A stretch of 8,957 bases of DNA from a virus (lineage: Duplodnaviria; Heunggongvirae; Uroviricota; Caudoviricetes): positions 1 to 8,957 of the IMG/VR virus record IMGVR_UViG_2737471848_000002; one strand, given 5' to 3'. The notes under the pieces are model-generated. The model did not search any database. It had not been told where the DNA came from and saw nothing but the letters and a program-made list of their open reading frames with translations. Positions within the stretch are counted from its first letter, which is position 1, and each line of letters opens with the position of its first letter. Below, in pieces: positions 1,761 to 7,507 of this stretch. Made by a program: the position numbers and the translations under genes.

Positions 1761-2071
1761 TAAGCACAACGGAAAGCCTTCTTTCATGCCCTGCTTAGGC
1801 TCGACACTAAGTATTTGGGAGAGTTGGCTTCCCCATGTGGTTAAAACAGGGTTTGTAATGGGTACTCAGCCAAAGAACCTTCCTGTAGGGCGCTGAGCTA
1901 AGTCTCACGTAGTAGCCACCACATCCTAACCTGCTACCTCAGGAAATCGGTCGAAAGACGCCTGATAAACGTAACTGGTCCCCTTCAGCTATGGCTAGAC
2001 CGGCCAGTCGAAAAGCAGTATCGTCACTGCCTGCCATAGCGAACATAGACGAGCAACTAGACGAGGTTGTT

Positions 2072-2856: not shown

Positions 2857-3331
2857 CGTAATAGCGGCGATAAGTGGCGGGGCTATTGCTATAGCATCTG
2901 TGTTAATCACTGGCCCAAGTGGTAACGATGGTCTGGAAGGTGTGAGACATAATCCTTACAAAGACATAGTTGGTGTATGGACTGTATGTTACGGGCATAC
3001 AGGAAAAGACATCATGCTCGGTAAAACGTATACCGAAGCAGAATGCAAAGCTCTCCTGAATAAAGACCTTGCCACGGTCGCCAGACAAATTAACCCGTAC
3101 ATCAAAGTCGATATACCGGAAACAACGCGCGGCGCTCTTTACTCGTTCGTCTACAACGTGGGGGCTGGCAATTTCAGAACATCGACGCTTCTTCGCAAAA
3201 TAAACCAGGGTGATATCAAAGGCGCATGTGACCAGCTACGTCGCTGGACATACGCTGGCGGTAAGCAATGGAAAGGGCTGATGACTCGCCGTGAGATTGA
3301 GCGTGAAGTCTGTTTATGGGGGCAGCAATGA
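2828..3331 (+). CDS. SAR (signal-arrest-release) endolysin, T4-lysozyme-like glycoside hydrolase family 24, R21/P1 Lyz type
   Basis: N-terminal Gly/Ala-rich weakly hydrophobic SAR segment [19 protein letters not shown], followed by the catalytic triad E-x8-D-x5-T in [17 protein letters not shown]. Near-collinear with the phage 21 / DLP12 endolysin as recalled. GAGGA at 2815-2819. The start overlaps the holin 3' end. Confidence 0.88.
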
Positions 3332-3765
3332 GCAGAGTAACCGCGATTATCTCCGCTCTGGTTATCTGCATCATCGTCTGCCTGTCATGGGCTGTTAATC
3401 ATTACCGTGATAAAGCCATTGCCTATAAAGAACAGCGCGATAAGGCCACGTACATCATTGCTGACATGCAGAAGCGTCAACGTGACGTAGCAGAACTCGA
3501 TGCCAGATATACAAAGGAGCTTGCTGATGCTAACGCGACTATCGAAAGTCTCCGTGCTGATGTTTCTGCTGGTCGTAAGCGCCTGCAAGTCGCCGCCACC
3601 TGTGCAAAGTCAACGACCGGAGCCAGCAGCATGGGCGATGGAGAAAGCCCAAGACTTACAGCAGATGCTGAACTCAATTATTACCGTCTCCGAAGTGGAA
3701 TCGACAGGATAACCGCGCAGGTTAACTACCTGCAGGAGTACATCAGGACGCAATGCCTGAAGTAA
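3328..3765 (+). CDS. Rz: Rz i-spanin (inner-membrane spanin subunit)
   Basis: Translation from ATG 3328, [28 protein letters not shown]..., matches the lambda Rz N-terminus as recalled: one N-terminal TMD and a coiled-coil periplasmic domain. ATGA overlap with the endolysin stop. GGGGG Shine-Dalgarno at 3318-3322. The track ORF start at 3316 lacks a Shine-Dalgarno. Confidence 0.85.
3527..3712 (+). CDS. Rz1: Rz1 o-spanin (outer-membrane lipoprotein spanin subunit), embedded in the +1 frame of Rz
   Basis: Internal ATG at 3527 preceded by AAGGAG (3513-3518). Signal peptide [20 protein letters not shown] with lipobox V-S-A-C, then a Pro-rich mature region ([13 protein letters not shown]) and a C-terminus resembling lambda Rz1 (NSIITVSE versus NGIISPSE). 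Wholly contained within Rz. Confidence 0.7.
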
Positions 3766-3797
3766 TTTTTTTGCAAATCACAAAGTCCATTTAATGA

Positions 3798-3820
3798 GCC
3801 TCGCGATGCGGGGCTTTTTT
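3798..3820 (+). terminator. Rho-independent terminator after the lysis cassette (first of a tandem pair)
   Basis: GCCTCG - CGATG - CGGGGC (one G-U pair) followed by TTTTTT. Confidence 0.6.
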
Positions 3821-3827
3821 GCAATAA

Positions 3828-3852
3828 ATGCGTACCGCAACGCATGTTTTTT
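3828..3852 (+). terminator. Rho-independent terminator (second of the tandem pair)
   Basis: ATGCGT - ACCGCA - ACGCAT perfect 6-bp stem followed by GTTTTTT. Confidence 0.55.
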
Positions 3853-3967
3853 ACACCGAACCTGACCCTTTGGAATGGGCCTTTGAGGATACCAGTTAGT
3901 GCTGGCGAGCCTCGGTGGGCTGGTTTCCTGTGCGGCAAAGGTTCATTTCAAATGGTAGGTAAACGTT

Positions 3968-4489
3968 ATGAATATCGTGCCACTTAATTACAAAGGTGAA
4001 ATTGTCAGTTTCAACACTGATGGTTGGATCAACGTCACAGGTGTTGCTGAGAGATTTGGGAAACGCATTGATAACTGGATGCGTTTGGCAGAAACGCTTG
4101 AATACGTTCGTGCTTTAGACGAAGCGTTGACCGGGAAAGAATCTCAAATTTTACATCCCTCACAATCGAGGTATGTAAAAACCAGCAAGGCACGAAAGGA
4201 CAGGGGTGGTGGTACGTGGCTACATCCAAAACTTTCAGTTGCATTTGCCCGTTGGTGTGATGCTCGTTTTGCTGTGTGGTGCGACCTGCACATTGATAGT
4301 CTGCTTCGCGGTGAACTGACTGAGCAGCAGAAATATGAGCAAGCATGTCGCATTCGCGATGACCGGAAATCAAAAGCCAGCAATGGGGCAAGAGAGATGG
4401 CTCGCTGGCGATGGGATAAGCCGGTTATTGAAGCAAATGTCGAGTACTGGCGCGAGCAACTGCAGTTGACTCTCGATATCGCTTGCTGA
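3968..4489 (+). CDS. KilA-N domain-containing protein (putative DNA-binding / antirepressor-like accessory protein), 173 aa
   Basis: ORF with AGGT at 3957-3960 seven nt upstream of the ATG. The N-terminal region MNIVPLNYKGEIVSFNTDGWINVTGVAERFGK...W...L resembles KilA-N/APSES-type domains as I recall them. Family assignment is from memory. Confidence 0.6.
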   Translation: MNIVPLNYKGEIVSFNTDGWINVTGVAERFGKRIDNWMRLAETLEYVRALDEALTGKESQILHPSQSRYVKTSKARKDRGGGTWLHPKLSVAFARWCDARFAVWCDLHIDSLLRGELTEQQKYEQACRIRDDRKSKASNGAREMARWRWDKPVIEANVEYWREQLQLTLDIAC

Positions 4490-4560
4490 TGGCAAACGCA
4501 AAACTGCGTTATCGGAAAAATCAAAGCATTACGAGAACTGAGCAACAGCTATCCATTACA

Positions 4561-4589
4561 AAGCCCATCTACGGGTGGGCTTGATAATG
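4561..4589 (+). repeat. Hairpin-GATAATG element, copy 1 (AAGCCCA / TGGGCTT stem followed by GATAATG)
   Basis: 7-bp inverted repeat 4561-4567 / 4576-4582 with an 8-nt loop containing CTAC, directly followed by GATAATG. A second copy with the same architecture lies at 5169-5201. Confidence 0.5.
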
Positions 4590-4779
4590 AAACCGGAATT
4601 TATTCTGGGTAACCAGTTACGGCAGTACAGCGAAACAACCCAAGCCAGTAAGTGGGGAAATAACACTGGCAGCCACTGAAAGATGAACCTCCTGCCTTAT
4701 GGCAAAAAAAAGATTCTTTGTGGTGGCGGACTGATGGAAAGACATCCTAATCAAGCAACCACTCCACAGGGTCATAATT

Positions 4780-5160
4780 ATGAACGACCAGCAAATCGAA
4801 AAAGAAATCGTTGAGAAAGGCAAAACCGCTCCGAGAATCACTCCGCAGCACATCGAAGACGTGATTAAAAGCGAGCATTACTTTACTGCTTATGATGGAC
4901 GAAATGGTGCCATTTCCAGCAACGAATATTGTGGCAGGGAAAAACCAGAAGAAGGCGATCGTGATTTATCACCATTGAAGTTGCTCACTTTCTGCGTACT
5001 GGTGCTGAAGAATGGCTTCACCGTCACCGGAGAGAGTGCCTGTGCAAGCCCGGAAAACTTTGATGCAGAAATTGGTCGGAAGATTGCCCGGCAAAATGCT
5101 GTAAACAAAATCTGGATGCTCGAAGGTTACTTGCTGAAGCAGAAGCTAAGCGAACAGTAG
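4780..5160 (+). CDS. Phage gp49/gp66-family protein (Phage_gp49_66-like), function unknown, 126 aa
   Basis: 126-aa ORF. The C-terminal segment GESACASPENFDAEIGRKIARQNAVNKIWMLEGYLL matches my recollection of the conserved core of the N4 gp49 / Sf6 gp66 family, which occupies this lysis-to-terminase position in P22-like phages. Confidence 0.55.
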   Translation: MNDQQIEKEIVEKGKTAPRITPQHIEDVIKSEHYFTAYDGRNGAISSNEYCGREKPEEGDRDLSPLKLLTFCVLVLKNGFTVTGESACASPENFDAEIGRKIARQNAVNKIWMLEGYLLKQKLSEQ

Positions 5161-5168
5161 TTATTACA

Positions 5169-5201
5169 AAAGCCATTCCCTACAGAGTGGCTTTGATAAT
5201 G
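5169..5201 (+). repeat. Hairpin-GATAATG element, copy 2 (AAAGCCA / TGGCTTT stem followed by GATAATG)
   Basis: 7-bp inverted repeat 5169-5175 / 5188-5194 with a 12-nt loop containing CTAC, followed by GATAATGG. Paralogous to 4561-4589. Confidence 0.5.
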
Positions 5202-5216
5202 GCTTATACCCTACAC

Positions 5217-5242
5217 GGGATATCTTAACTGATATCCCTTTT
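5217..5242 (+). terminator. Perfect palindrome GGGATATC-TTAACT-GATATCCC followed by TTTT (terminator-like, or an operator-type protein-binding site)
   Basis: 8-bp perfect inverted repeat with a 6-nt loop and a T4 tract, between the gp49-like stop (5160) and the Shine-Dalgarno of the next ORF. Confidence 0.35.
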
Positions 5243-5263
5243 AACGGATAAACGGAGCCAACA

Positions 5264-5506
5264 ATGGCAGAGATTATTCCTATGACTGAAGAACAGAAAT
5301 TCCAGTTAGAGATTTACAAACTGGTCATGAACCAGAACGAAGCCGCAGAGGAAGCATTTCAGTTCATTGGCACTGACGAGCTGAAGCTTGAGCTATTCAA
5401 AATTCACTTCCAGTCAGGCGGCGCTAATTCAGATATCACGACCCGCACTATCGAAGCGGTGCGTAAATCGAAGGAAGCGTTAGACCTGTTCACCACCGGA
5501 GCATGA
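5264..5506 (+). CDS. Hypothetical protein, 80 aa (positional equivalent of the small orphan ORF upstream of gene 3 in P22-like phages)
   Basis: ORF with ACGGAG Shine-Dalgarno 6 nt upstream. Acidic, predicted helical; no family recognised. Confidence 0.5.
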   Translation: MAEIIPMTEEQKFQLEIYKLVMNQNEAAEEAFQFIGTDELKLELFKIHFQSGGANSDITTRTIEAVRKSKEALDLFTTGA

Positions 5507-5541
5507 TGCTCAACCTGAAATGACAACTAAGTGAGATGAAT

Positions 5542-6030
5542 ATGGCAGCACCAAAGGGCAACCGATTTTGGGAGGCCCGCAGTAGTCATGGGCGAAATCC
5601 TAAATTCGAATCGCCTGAGGCGCTGTGGGCTGCTTGTTGTGAATACTTCGAGTGGGCTGATGATAACCCACTATGGGAGGGTAAGGTATTTTCATATCAG
5701 GGAGAAATAATTAAGGCTAATGTCCCTAAGATGCGAGCCATGACTATTTCAGGATTGTGTACCTTCCTTGATATCACCAGGCAAACGTGGGGAACCTTCC
5801 GGTCAATGGAAGGTTTTTCTGACGTCACATCGCGAGCGGAAGACATCATCTACGACCAGAAATTCTCTGGCGCAGCCGCTGACCTTCTCAACGCTAACAT
5901 CATCGCCCGTGATTTGGGCATCAAAGAGCAGTCGCAAGTTGAAGACGTGACACCTGATAAGGGAGATCGCGATAAGCGGCGCTCTCGTATCAAGGAGCTA
6001 TTCAACCGTGGAACTGGACGCGATTCTTGA
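5542..6030 (+). CDS. Terminase small subunit, P22 gp3 type (DNA-packaging protein gp3), 162 aa
   Basis: Translation [44 protein letters not shown]... resembles the P22-like gp3 family as recalled. GTGAG Shine-Dalgarno 6 nt upstream of ATG 5542 (the track ORF starts two codons earlier at 5536). Immediately precedes and overlaps the large terminase gene. Confidence 0.8.
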
Positions 6031-7507
6031 TAACTTGAGCGACGAAGAGCAAATCGAATTGCTCGAGCTACTCGAAGAAGAAGAGAACTACCGGAACACA
6101 CACCTGCTATATGAATTTACGCCATACAGCAAACAGCGTGAGTTCATCGACGCCGGGCATGACTATCCAGAGCGCTGTTTTATGGCTGGTAACCAGCTTG
6201 GTAAGTCATTTACTGGTGCTGCTGAAGTCGCATTTCACCTTACCGGGCGTTATCCGGGCACAAAAGGATATCCTGCTGATGGTAAATATGGTGGGGAGTG
6301 GAAAGGTAAGCGTTTCTATGAGCCTGTTGTCTTCTGGATTGGTGGCGAGACAAACGAGACGGTAACCAAAACGACTCAACGCATCCTGTGCGGTCGTATT
6401 GAAGAGAATGATGAACCGGGCTACGGTTCAATACCGAAAGAGGACATCATTAGCTGGAAGAAGTCTCCTTTCTTTCCGAACCTTGTTGATCACCTTCTGG
6501 TTAAGCATCACACGGCTGATGGCGTTGAAGATGGCATTTCAATCTGCTACTTCAAGCCATACTCGCAAGGTCGTGCTCGCTGGCAGGGTGACACAATCCA
6601 CGGAGTGTGGTTTGACGAAGAACCACCATACAGCATTTATGGCGAAGGGCTTACCCGTACCAACAAATACGGGCAATTCTCAATCCTGACGTTTACCCCG
6701 CTGATGGGGATGTCTGACGTTGTTACCAAGTTCCTGAAGAATCCCAGCAAGTCGCAGAAAGTGGTCAACATGACCATCTATGACGCTGAGCACTATACCG
6801 ACGAGCAGAAAGAGCAAATCATCGCATCCTATCCTGAGCATGAGAGAGAGGCGCGTGCTCGCGGTATTCCTACGATGGGTAGTGGTCGAATCTTCCAGAT
6901 ACCGGAAGAGACGATTAAGTGTCAGCCGTTCGAGTGTCCTGATCACTTCTACGTAATTGGCGGTATGGATTTCGGATGGGATCACCCGCAGGCGCAGGTT
7001 CAGCTTTGGTGGGATAAGGACGCAGACACAATCTACGTTTCACGCGTGTGGAAGGCGAAAGAAAAGACAGCCGTTCAGGCGTGGGGAGCAGTTAAATCAT
7101 GGGCGCATAAAGTGCCAACCGCATGGCCTCATGACGGAAACCAGCACGAGAAGGGTGGCGGTGAGCAGCTCAAAGGGCAGTATGCAGACGCTGGATTTAT
7201 GATGTTGCAGGAGCATGCGACATGGCCTGATGGCGGTAATGCTGTTGAGCCTGGCATCACTGAATTGCGCGACATGATGCTTGATGGTCGCTTCAAAGTA
7301 TTCAACACCTGTGAGCCATTCTTTGAGGAGTTCCGCCTCTATCACCGTGATGAAAACGGGAAGATCGTCAAGCTTAACGACGACGTTCTCTCAGCCGTTC
7401 GCTATGCATACATGATGCGCCGCTTCGCAAAAATGATGCGCGACATCAAAAAACCAAAAGAGAAAAAGATACCAGCCCCAATCAGGCCCATCGCACGGAG
7501 AACTTAA
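6008..7507 (+). CDS. Terminase large subunit, P22 gp2 type (headful packaging ATPase/nuclease), 499 aa
   Basis: 499-aa ORF starting at GTG 6008 (no in-frame ATG for about 58 codons), with AGGAG at 5993-5997. Acidic N-terminus [18 protein letters not shown], Walker-A-like GNQLGKS, and length and sequence matching P22 gp2 as recalled. Overlaps the terS 3' end by 23 nt. Confidence 0.9.

Follow-up and report, generated by a model that had tools for sequence, protein, structure and literature searches.

The locus studied here raises the question of what a pair of repeated hairpins on either side of a small phage gene is for. The window, that is the whole stretch of 8,957 nucleotides that was analysed, carries on its plus strand a KilA-N gene (3968..4489; Pfam PF04383) and a gene of the Phage_gp49_66 family (4780..5160; Pfam PF13876, E 3.4e-35; present in the ORF list), the latter being the cargo between the two hairpins. 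The initial annotation had described elements of about 30 nt (4561-4589 and 5169-5201) with a 7-bp stem and a CTAC-containing loop, and had listed attenuation, RNA stability or processing, and protein binding, possibly by the KilA-N product, as functions. We found that a repeated structured motif does delimit this accessory gene.

Both hairpins are present at these places, 71 nt past the KilA-N stop (4489) and 8 nt past the gp49-like stop (5160), distances that are correct for the coordinates used at the time. The elements are larger, however. Their 5' flank (ATTACA) and 3' flank (GATAATG) are conserved and pair with each other, and therefore the units span 4554-4589 (copy 1, type A) and 5162-5201 (copy 2, type B), both on the plus strand and defined by sequence, fold and covariance-model matches. 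With the full units, the gap is 64 nt from the KilA-N stop to copy 1 and 1 nt from the gp49-like stop to copy 2. Copy 1 reads CATTA CA AAGCCCATC tacg GGTGGGCTT GA TAATG, and copy 2 reads TATTA CA AAAGCCATTC cctaca GAGTGGCTTT GA TAATG. Both follow one plan, with a lower stem of 5-7 bp, a 2x2 internal loop (CA/GA), an upper stem of 9-10 bp and a small loop. In copy 1, the lower stem pairs 4554-4558 with 4585-4589 (CAUUA/UAAUG), the internal loop is formed by 4559-4560 (CA) and 4583-4584 (GA), and the upper stem (4561-4569 / 4574-4582) closes on the loop UACG at 4570-4573. The lower stem of copy 2 pairs 5162-5166 with 5197-5201 and can be extended to 5160-5166 / 5197-5203, followed by the internal loop at 5167-5168 (CA) and 5195-5196 (GA), the upper stem at 5169-5178 / 5185-5194 and the loop at 5179-5184. 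With G.U pairs counted, the inner stems are 9 bp in copy 1 and 10 bp in copy 2, rather than 7 bp.

The folding energy of each copy was -20.6 kcal/mol (z = -4.9 for copy 1 and -5.0 for copy 2 against dinucleotide shuffles), and for both the fold of the minus strand was weaker than that of the plus strand. The family covariance models scored copy 1 at 58.8 and 51.8 bits and copy 2 at 53.8 and 52 bits (E ~1e-11 to 1e-12), and a scan of the window with these models gave no third copy. The mutual resemblance of the two copies is far beyond chance. The search of homologous phages that the initial annotation had called for found the motif at equivalent positions, so a refutation based on its absence fails.

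The two window elements are members of a widespread family of RNA hairpins of ~37-41 nt in lambdoid phages and prophages of Enterobacterales. The covariance model returned 140 copies in 703 kb of related loci, and 140/140 were on the late-operon strand. The type-A form occurs in 1349/5426 complete E. coli genomes (about a quarter), and phage records that have it number at least 147; Stx prophages of EHEC O157:H7 also carry it. P22 has a type-C copy, and related forms are spread over dozens of genera of Enterobacterales. The DLP12 and Qin prophages of K-12 carry no copy, so the published K-12 RNase III maps are unusable here. Most relatives have loops of 3 nt, for example ACU or AAU; the CTAC of the initial annotation is found in both window loops and is not conserved across the family. 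The terminal AUG is nearly invariant, with AUA in one copy and UUG in another as exceptions.

This hairpin family was previously unannotated. In a scan of the window, no curated model of Rfam 15 matched it: the one Rfam match overlapping copy 1 was a chance-level XIST A-repeat (4516-4582, minus strand) at 16 bits versus a gathering score of 33 (E 7.4), and copy 2 was covered by no match. The records of P22, HK97, Sf6 and HK620 carry no annotation of these hairpins, and no paper giving the motif sequence was found in the literature searched. A divergent 'R-type' third copy after Rz in P22 (locus L004, 1572-1609) was considered; neither covariance model detects it and it is unproven. By eye, that segment keeps CA/GA and AAAUG, and its lower stem covaries to AUUU/AAAU.

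A pattern scan with fixed flanks and seven stem pairs left free yielded 81 copies from 80 Enterobacterales species. It replaced an earlier flank-anchored retrieval with fuzzy regular expressions, which was too loose to be informative. In these copies, 97.9% of the free stem cells (555/567) were paired over 35 distinct stems, and G.U outnumbered A.C by 75:2. In the covariance-model alignments, 96-97.5% of pair cells were paired versus 33-52% with the partner column slid, and both sides had changed at 9-11 of the 15 pairs. Since pairing is nearly complete and G.U is far above A.C, the hairpin is under selection in the sense strand. In FSL SP-016, the copy 3' of a minus-strand gene scored 39 bits on the minus strand versus 26. 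The selected molecule is most simply the late mRNA; the G.U asymmetry is equally compatible with a single-stranded DNA hairpin of the same strand.

The position and orientation of the elements are fixed relative to genes. They lie on the late (Q-antiterminated) transcript, directly 3' of the stop codons of small accessory genes in the lysis-terminase interval. Matches in the whole genomes of P22, HK97 and Sf6 were confined to the region between Rz and terminase, and 60/80 genome loci had lysis genes upstream and HNH/TerS/TerL downstream on the same strand. In 56/81 copies, the upstream frame had its stop codon 0-6 nt from the element. For phage Huey, the annotation puts anti-CRISPR genes within the stretch covered by the BLAST match, which does not imply their placement in the lysis-terminase interval.

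This distribution bears on the proposed link to the KilA-N protein. A binding site for that neighbour (or for Rha), or an intrinsic terminator or attenuator, is extremely unlikely. The KilA-N gene does adjoin the element in this window, and the outer sequences are palindromic. But the element is 3' of Rha in phiKp_30 and P22, 3' of a 50-aa gene in Sf6 and behind more than 20 unrelated upstream sequences, and 0/80 genome loci had a detectable homologue of the window's KilA-N, so that the distribution largely refutes the link. The spacer covariation, moreover, indicates that a hairpin was selected and not a duplex operator. The initial annotation was right that no terminator U-tract follows either window hairpin: GAUAAUG comes after the stem, and the terminator scan calls neither copy. 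Actual terminators sometimes lie directly upstream of the element. Attenuation, which had also been suggested, is unsupported: the U-tract is missing and alternative pairing was not seen.

Several further candidates were tried and rejected. A promoter with GATAAT as its -10 has no acceptable -35 upstream and no scan match. A terminator on either strand lacks the U-tract; the minus strand offers only UUUGUAAU with a weaker fold, and P22 is without it. A conserved small protein from the terminal AUG is not indicated by the near-random, frameshifted reading frames. REP/RAYT, CRISPR repeats, an IHF site and IS200/IS605-like ends were also set aside, as no signature of theirs was recognised in the elements.

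The right flanks of both window copies are also conserved. The right flank of copy 1 (4590..4746, plus strand) is apparently non-coding, and the ORFs that start from the terminal AUG there are variable, from 3 to 60 codons, with frameshifted variants. Downstream of copy 2, a terminator-like hairpin at 5217..5242 on the plus strand (GGGAUAUC-uuaacu-GAUAUCCC followed by UUUU, seen in the fold) belongs to that copy's conserved right flank, which is kept in 80/139 instances; its U-tract falls under the threshold of the terminator scan. From the AUG of copy 2 runs a 9-codon mini-ORF, MAYTLHGI(S/T), whose stop lies inside the loop of this hairpin. The DUF2560 (P22 orf80) gene follows at 5264..5506 (plus strand; Pfam and spacing). 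In P22-like loci its start is always 62 nt past the last element, and in more distant prophages (the L162 and L210 architectures) it has an element on both sides. With low confidence, 3777-3798 on the plus strand, just past the Rz stop, may be a truncated remnant of a type-C-like element, with the 5' half only, fused to an intrinsic terminator. This segment was listed under the 14-nt repeat family D1, its likeness to ATTGCAGAGGCCATTTAATGAG of P22 was seen by eye, and it has no covariance-model match.

These reading frames allow a translational explanation, in which ribosomes terminating at the adjoining stop codon free the AUG in the lower stem, and translation of the mini-ORF melts the next terminator-like hairpin or supplies ribosomes to the next gene. 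The nearly invariant AUG, a stop codon 0-3 nt 5' of the element and the 9-codon ORF of types B and C, which in every case terminates within the loop of the following hairpin, are consistent with such a leader peptide or coupling device. We regard it as very unlikely, because ORF lengths across the family are near random (median ~8 codons, range 1-175) with frameshifted variants, and a consistent Shine-Dalgarno sequence is absent. The AUG pairs with an equally conserved CAU, so that structure suffices to explain its conservation, and it is replaced in the two copies with AUA and UUG.

The elements coincide with mosaic junctions. Homology blocks between phages begin at the left edge of the elements, and BLAST block starts cluster at 4550-4554 (27 HSPs) and 5160-5163 (60 HSPs); a further junction, where 45 HSPs end, is located at 4746 just upstream of the gp49 cassette. 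At least 21 unrelated left flanks were found, the cargo between copies differs among Emek, HK544, phiKp_30 and the window, and hybrid elements and single-copy states occur in L030, L064 and Stx2 phage 1717. Cassettes that are otherwise unrelated share these conserved 35-40 nt, so the elements may also act as short homology patches for phage recombinases, by which cassettes would be exchanged, deleted or added. We infer this as a secondary consequence.

Could gene exchange be the function itself? The elements might be DNA-level recombination sites, in which a single-stranded hairpin or cruciform is targeted by a recombinase or nuclease that exchanges cassettes, as in integron attC sites or with hairpin-recognising transposases. 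The element has a variable stem between conserved ends that pair, with a spacer left unpaired; its G.T pairs are strand-asymmetric, its left-edge junctions are sharp and involve many cargo genes, hybrid copies exist, and copies stand on both sides of single small genes, all of which suits this explanation. Yet no integrase, transposase or other protein consistently co-occurs; the genes around the elements are those for lysis, HNH proteins and terminase, along with small genes of various kinds. The flanks are unlike attC core sites, orientation tracks the gene in the sole inverted case (FSL SP-016), and the junctions are accounted for by ordinary homologous exchange within a 35-nt stretch of conserved sequence. 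The resemblance to T7 described below indicates RNA. A dedicated recombination site is thus rather improbable. A broader and speculative proposal, to which we give little credence, takes the lysis-terminase interval of lambdoid phages as a dedicated cassette platform, with the hairpin as both an RNase III-dependent switch and a site of DNA capture or exchange. A standard hairpin would accompany every accessory (moron or anti-defence) gene, either brought along by the gene or already present at its point of insertion, and the RNA switch would set expression only under Q-antiterminated read-through, a retroregulation like that of lambda sib. It would be the phage counterpart of integron attC logic, minus the integrase.

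The reading that we prefer, with a probability of about one half, is that the elements may be T7-type RNase III processing and stability signals that double as homology patches for gene shuffling. Among the functions in the initial annotation, the RNA-stability or processing element is the one that the sense-strand G.U asymmetry and the likeness to T7 RNase III sites favour. Model R2, built from prophage copies only, was run on T7. Five of its top six matches in the T7 early region (6.2 kb) were the upper stems of five intergenic hairpins, which precede genes 0.3, 0.5, 1, 1.1 and 1.3 (14.4, 12.7, 11.3, 7.3 and 6.9 bits); individually these matches are weak (E 0.03-4) and cover the upper stem only. 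Other T7 positions gave nothing comparable, the best background in the remaining 33 kb being 13 bits, and R2 did not match the T7 late RNase III sites. We take the early intergenic hairpins to be RNase III sites; beyond R1.1, this follows Dunn and Studier 1983, where the sites are reportedly described. Among the features listed for V01146 and NC_001604, none is an RNase III feature.

The likeness extends to individual pairs. T7 R1.1 is AAGGUCAUUC-GCAA-GAGUGGCCUU and window copy 2 is AAAGCCAUUC-..-GAGUGGCUUU, and the five loop-proximal pairs (C-G, U-A, U.G, A-U, C-G) are identical in the two. The apex of copy 1, CAUC-UACG-GGUG, resembles that of T7 R1, CAUC-UGCG-GGUG. At the distal box, copy 2 has C-G, U-A and U.G as R1.1 does, and copy 1 has C-G and U.G like T7 R1. 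Beside the closing pair, UG occurs in 65/79 and UA in 67/79 distinct copies of the family; in a sample with unconstrained apex the counts were 22/34 for UA and 12/34 for UG, so the box is common and not universal.

RNase III stringently requires the UG pair of the distal box, its cut must be separated from the loop by no fewer than 11 bp, and internal loops limit it to single-strand cleavage, leaving a protective 3' hairpin (PMC1540722). In the window, the CA/GA 2x2 loop comes directly after the upper stem of 10 bp (copy 2) or 9 bp (copy 1), which is in keeping with signals of the R1.1 type, whose internal loop is about 11-13 positions away from the hairpin loop. The helix has 16-19 stacked positions, slightly under the ~20-22, or two turns, of typical RNase III substrates (PMC1540722), and the lower stem of copy 1 is just 5 bp. 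In signals of the R1.1 type, G-C pairs at positions 2 and 4 of the proximal box are inhibitory. At the foot of the upper stem, where this box may lie, the window copies have mostly A-U pairs (AAG/CUU and AAAG/CUUU), with variation across the family.

On this model, host RNase III would recognise a quasi-continuous helix as in the T7 early sites, composed of the lower stem, the C.A + A.G internal loop and the 10-bp upper stem with its UA/UG distal box. The predicted cut is in or beside the 3' side of the internal loop, at ~4583-4587 and ~5195-5199. After the cut, the upstream message would end in a protective hairpin, and each accessory cassette would be separate from its neighbours in expression and decay. 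The flanks CAUUACA and GAUAAUG are strictly conserved, absent from the T7 sites and not accounted for by the known properties of RNase III; they could be the signature of a further protein partner.

A simpler function that needs no RNase III is a generic intercistronic stabiliser or insulator. Such a hairpin would block 3'-5' exonucleases after cuts made elsewhere and, near a stop codon, may slow termination or keep ribosomes or RNA folding from crossing between cassettes. A sense-strand hairpin without a U-tract directly 3' of stop codons is what it calls for, and the variable spacing from the stop (0-6 nt) fits a hairpin set as near to the stop as it will go, with no fixed register. REP hairpins near stop codons in E. 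coli, reportedly described by Liang, Rudd and Deutscher in 2015, are a precedent. However, the invariant CAUUACA/GAUAAUG, the conserved C.A + A.G loop and the conserved U.G wobble would be superfluous in a plain barrier, and the specific likeness to T7 RNase III sites is left unexplained. We therefore consider it unlikely.

If the RNase III reading is correct, the family would represent a processing signal, dependent on a host RNase, that is common in lambdoid late operons. To our knowledge, no such signal has been described there, and our literature search found nothing relevant on RNase III sites in these operons. It would also say, in concrete and testable molecular terms, what the long-debated 'linker' or 'boundary' sequences of mosaic phage genomes are, namely a patch at module borders that is conserved because of its own RNA function. 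The element marks the borders of the accessory locus, an aid to annotation, and it could be a natural insulator part in engineered operons.

Several known systems resemble the elements in part. Integron attC sites are likewise located at the 3' end of cassette genes and share the conserved pairing ends, unpaired spacer, variable stem and strand asymmetry. In contrast, our elements are much shorter, have flanks of CATTACA/GATAATG in place of RYYYAAC/GTTRRRY cores, follow the direction of transcription and are without an integrase; none was found among their neighbours. REP/BIME sequences are also 3' untranslated or intercistronic RNA hairpins of ~35-40 nt without a U-tract and can stabilise upstream mRNA, but their sequence is unrelated, and the prophage elements occur singly in one region with no GTAG/RAYT signature.

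The PeSLs of T4-type phages are repeats beside non-essential genes in hyperplastic regions, where recombination shuffles, deletes or replaces genes (PMC2839356). As with our elements, copies flank variable genes, and recombination between copies accounts for gene gain and loss. A PeSL, however, combines a sigma-70 promoter with a working terminator, whereas the elements have neither promoter nor U-tract and show strong covariation; the promoter scan found no promoter-like site in or beside the window copies. The boundary ('linker') sequences of lambdoid phages (Susskind and Botstein; Clark et al. 2001, cited in PMC3029335) are short conserved module borders proposed as foci of homologous recombination. 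Our elements similarly fall where homologous and non-homologous segments meet. The bsq features of Sf6 are located elsewhere (bsq7 is inside Rz), and the Sf6 and HK620 records leave the hairpins unmarked. Unlike boundary sequences, the elements are selected as hairpins, so they have a function of their own beyond homology.

For the T7 early sites (R0.3, R0.5, R1, R1.1 and R1.3), the differences lie in the internal loop, which is larger and asymmetric in T7 and small and symmetric (CA/GA) here, and in the CAUUACA/GAUAAUG flanks and shorter lower stem, which belong to the prophage family only. T7 uses its sites in a lytic early operon, whereas the putative cleavage here would take place in late operons of temperate lambdoid phages. 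In both, intercistronic hairpins lie shortly after stop codons in polycistronic phage mRNA, and a 9-10 bp upper stem of near-identical consensus with a U-A/U.G distal box is followed by an internal loop and a lower stem.

The phage is P22-like (Lederbergvirus-type), and the window is its late region. Pfam matches placed Rz at 3316-3765, KilA-N at 3968-4489, a gene of the gp49/Sf6-gene-66 family at 4780-5160, DUF2560 (P22 orf80) at 5264-5506 and the small terminase gp3 at 5536-6030. The ORF at 6008-7507 is similar to the TerL genes found 3' of the elements in other loci and holds the position of P22 gene 2. BLAST bore out the P22-like kinship, with heavy mosaicism. Rfam also matched an int-alpA RNA (RF02996) at 1988-2054 (+ strand; 43.7 bits vs a gathering score of 35.8, E 1.3e-6); the match lies at the beginning of the ORF 1991-2347, with a Q-like gene (998-1621) on one side and the holin region on the other.

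The initial annotation described two repeated hairpin motifs flanking the gp49-like gene. We found both where it placed them, each longer than described: the left-hand ATTACA and the right-hand GATAATG occur in both copies and pair with each other. The units are 4554-4589 (copy 1) and 5162-5201 (copy 2). RNAfold predicted one architecture for both copies: a CAUUA/UAAUG lower stem leads through a 2x2 CA/GA internal loop into an upper stem of 9 or 10 bp, capped by an apical loop of 4 or 6 nt. The fold energy of each copy is -20.6 kcal/mol (z about -5), and the minus-strand fold is weaker. As noted before, the U-tract of a canonical terminator is absent at both hairpins, and a terminator scan called neither. 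No sigma-70-like promoter was found in or beside either element, and an Rfam 15 search at both gave no family match. Covariance models found exactly two copies in the window.

Directly 3' of the Rz stop, window 3777-3845 (+) carries what may be the 5' half of an element resembling type C, the P22 stem variant, fused to terminator-like hairpins. The two successive intrinsic-terminator-like hairpins lie at 3796-3816 and 3828-3845 (+), each followed by U6. The P22 counterpart after Rz (1572-1609 of locus L004) is a full hairpin with CA/GA and AAAUG, and was not recognised by the models.

The repeated motif is real, and the finding is considerably broader than the initial annotation saw: the motif is present at equivalent positions of homologous phages (Emek, HK544, phiKp_30, P22) with different cargo. 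In Emek a different gene, orf53, sits between the two copies, and HK544 has no annotated gene there. In phiKp_30 the first copy lies 3' of Rha, not KilA-N. The earlier proposal of a KilA-N binding site or attenuator is effectively excluded. P22 has one copy with a compensatory stem change, AAAGCC/GGCUUU to GAGGCC/GGCCUC. Several stem types occur across 80 IMG/VR loci retrieved via orf80, including G.U intermediates (GAGGCC/GGUCUC) and double changes (GAGACC/GGUCUC), and the lower stem covaries too (AUUA/UAAU to AUUG/CAAU). A first covariance model was built from 23 variants; a search with it found 140 copies in 703 kb, all 140 on the late-operon strand. Among 39 distinct sequences, pair cells were paired in 96.2% of cases vs 33-48% with the 3' partner slid, and 9 of 15 pairs showed two-sided changes.

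Since these early collections were filtered for pairing, we ran fixed-flank pattern scans instead. A CATTACA-N19-27-GATAATG scan of IMG/VR matched at least 120 loci; among the matches listed, 49 of 122 form the anchored hairpin, many with new stems. We then scanned GTDB, one genome per species, with CATTACAG-N6-TTC-N3-GAG-N7-GATAATG, which leaves seven pairs unconstrained. This yielded 81 matches in 80 genomes, where less than one was expected by chance, spanning many Enterobacterales genera (Serratia, Citrobacter, Enterobacter, Kluyvera, Erwinia, Pectobacterium, Yersinia, Rahnella, Pantoea, Brenneria). One of the 81, at 2847-2883 of locus L283, is on a contig labelled Sphingomonas sp., outside Enterobacterales, and may be contamination or a transferred prophage. 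The free positions were paired in 555 of 567 cells vs about 37% by chance; all seven free pairs were intact in 70 of 81 copies, with 35 different stems. In the pooled alignment of 79 distinct copies, pairing reached 97.5%, with two-sided changes in 11 of 15 pairs. Positions -1/-2 and +1/+2 tend to pair (66%), giving a lower stem of about 7 bp in one subfamily. We found the type-A form, that of copy 1, in 1349 of the 5426 complete E. coli genomes and in 147 phage records, among them HK97, ES18, Stx phages, Klebsiella phages and one Aeromonas phage.

Non-Watson-Crick pairs in the free positions of the GTDB matches were G.U 75 times and A.C twice. Because the scan orientation is fixed by the flanks and not by the pairs, this asymmetry shows selection on the hairpin as formed by the single-stranded sense strand. 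As G.T, it would fit single-stranded DNA equally well, the form in which a DNA-level recombination site could act; we consider such a site quite unlikely.

These data define a new, strongly covarying hairpin family that occurs in lambdoid phages of Enterobacterales and is restricted to their lysis-terminase accessory region. In the whole genomes of P22, HK97 and Sf6, copies occur only between Rz and the terminase. Around the 80 genome copies, endolysin or Rz homologues are found on the upstream side; the downstream side has HNH, small or large terminase or phage metallopeptidase homologues. The side rule was broken once, by a lysozyme match downstream, and every match lies on the element's strand. 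In two more distant prophages (L162, L210), a DUF2560 gene sits between two copies. FSL SP-016 has a copy 8 nt beyond a gene on the minus strand; its higher score is also on that strand, indicating that element orientation follows the gene.

The upstream frame stops 0-6 nt 5' of the element in 56 of 81 copies; in the P22-like set this distance is 1-2 nt for at least seven unrelated C-termini. A translational coupling device at this position is very improbable in our assessment. ORFs opening at the element's terminal AUG have near-random lengths and frameshifted variants, and this AUG probably owes its conservation to pairing with CAU and not to use as a start codon. At copy 2 it opens a 9-codon mini-ORF, MAYTLHGIS. 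A perfect 8-bp hairpin with UUUU after it (5217-5242) holds the stop codon of this ORF (5226-5228) in its loop. Mini-ORF and hairpin together (window 5199-5242, +) are kept with the element in most P22-like loci, HK97 and Stx2 phage 1717.

The elements coincide with mosaic junctions. Among 139 copies with enough flank, the left flank is of at least 21 unrelated kinds and the right flank of 10, three of them common. When window 3300-6100 was compared with the collected related loci by BLAST, HSP starts clustered at 4550-4554 (27) and 5160-5163 (60), the left edges of copies 1 and 2, and HSP ends at 4746, where the gp49 cassette begins. Public BLAST agrees, with two phages aligning from query base 855 (window 4554). 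Hybrid and single-copy states, such as a type-A hairpin with the right flank of types B/C in two related loci (L030, L064) and Stx2 phage 1717, are as expected from exchange between copies.

Other features of these loci were also recorded. The approximately 160 nt right of copy 1 (4590-4746, +) is widely conserved in P22-like phages and HK97; its reading frame is disrupted by indels in relatives and it contains small hairpins (e.g. 4593-4608), and it may be a non-coding RNA or regulatory spacer. HK97 (2799-2900 of locus L085) retains the element, the terminator-like hairpin and about the first 25 codons of orf80 and diverges before an HNH endonuclease gene, a mosaic junction inside DUF2560. 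A second sharp junction, unrelated to the hairpins, lies at window 3328, 12 nt into Rz (55 BLAST block starts); in Sf6, boundary sequence bsq7 is annotated inside the Rz gene. In phage Huey, the region aligned by BLAST to window 3700-5541 includes an Rz-like spanin and, somewhere along it, annotated anti-CRISPR genes; anti-defence cargo in the hairpin-delimited locus is only a suggestion from this annotation.

The conserved internal loop and flanks, together with a conserved U.G wobble located two pairs down from the closing pair, point to recognition by a factor and not to mere stability. A generic stabiliser or insulator hairpin is therefore doubtful. The carrier phages differ in their annotated Q proteins and terminases, making a host factor the more economical candidate.

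To compare architecture, we folded the early-operon intergenic regions of phage T7. The hairpin between genes 1 and 1.1, AAGGUCAUUC-GCAA-GAGUGGCCUU, is very close to copy 2, AAAGCCAUUC..GAGUGGCUUU, and that before gene 1, CAGGUCAUC-UGCG-GGUGGCCUG, to copy 1, AAGCCCAUC-UACG-GGUGGGCUU. In the 6.2-kb T7 early region, five intergenic hairpins were among the top six hits of R2, a covariance model trained solely on prophage copies: those before genes 1.1 (5861-5884), 1 (3115-3134), 0.5 (1441-1465), 0.3 (866-887) and 1.3 (6421-6445). These matches are weak and cover the upper stem alone. In the other 33 kb of T7, a single background hit scored comparably, and no other intergenic hairpin did. We take the five to be the RNase III sites R1.1, R1, R0.5, R0.3 and R1.3, respectively. 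The T7 early sites were reportedly described by Dunn and Studier in 1983, with cuts said to fall about 3 nt beyond the matched hairpins. For R1.1 the identification is corroborated: its position, GCAA tetraloop and UA/UG box agree with a published description (PMC1540722).

The top five pairs of copy 2 are identical to R1.1, and its internal loop begins after a 10-bp upper stem; RNase III substrates require at least 11 bp between cut and loop (PMC1540722). The distal box UA/UG is a positive determinant for RNase III, UG being stringent (PMC1540722), and 65 of 79 distinct copies carry the conserved U.G, which is less dominant in the sample with an unconstrained apex. The T7 resemblance, the R1.1-like apex of copy 2 and this U.G favour RNase III processing. 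RNase III would cut near GA/UAA on the 3' side of the element, leaving a hairpin-capped upstream message and separated cassettes. Internal loops are known to confine the cut to one strand, and the resulting 3' hairpin shields from 3'-5' exonucleases (PMC1540722). However, substrates typically have two helical turns (PMC1540722); the helix of the elements is a little short, and the family-specific flanks are unexplained by RNase III. Taken together, we assign a probability of roughly 50% to the reading that the elements are T7-like RNase III signals for processing and stability and act as module boundaries too.

The hairpins are not marked in the Sf6 record, where bsq2-bsq7 are annotated elsewhere, or in the HK620 record, and the motif sequence was not found printed in the literature searched. 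At junctions, they behave like the lambdoid boundary sequences, for which recombination at module borders was proposed (PMC3029335), and the PeSL cassettes of T4-type phages, for which it was demonstrated (PMC2839356). The family is not a categorically new system; it is a variation on known kinds, namely phage RNase III sites and boundary/PeSL-like shuffling motifs.
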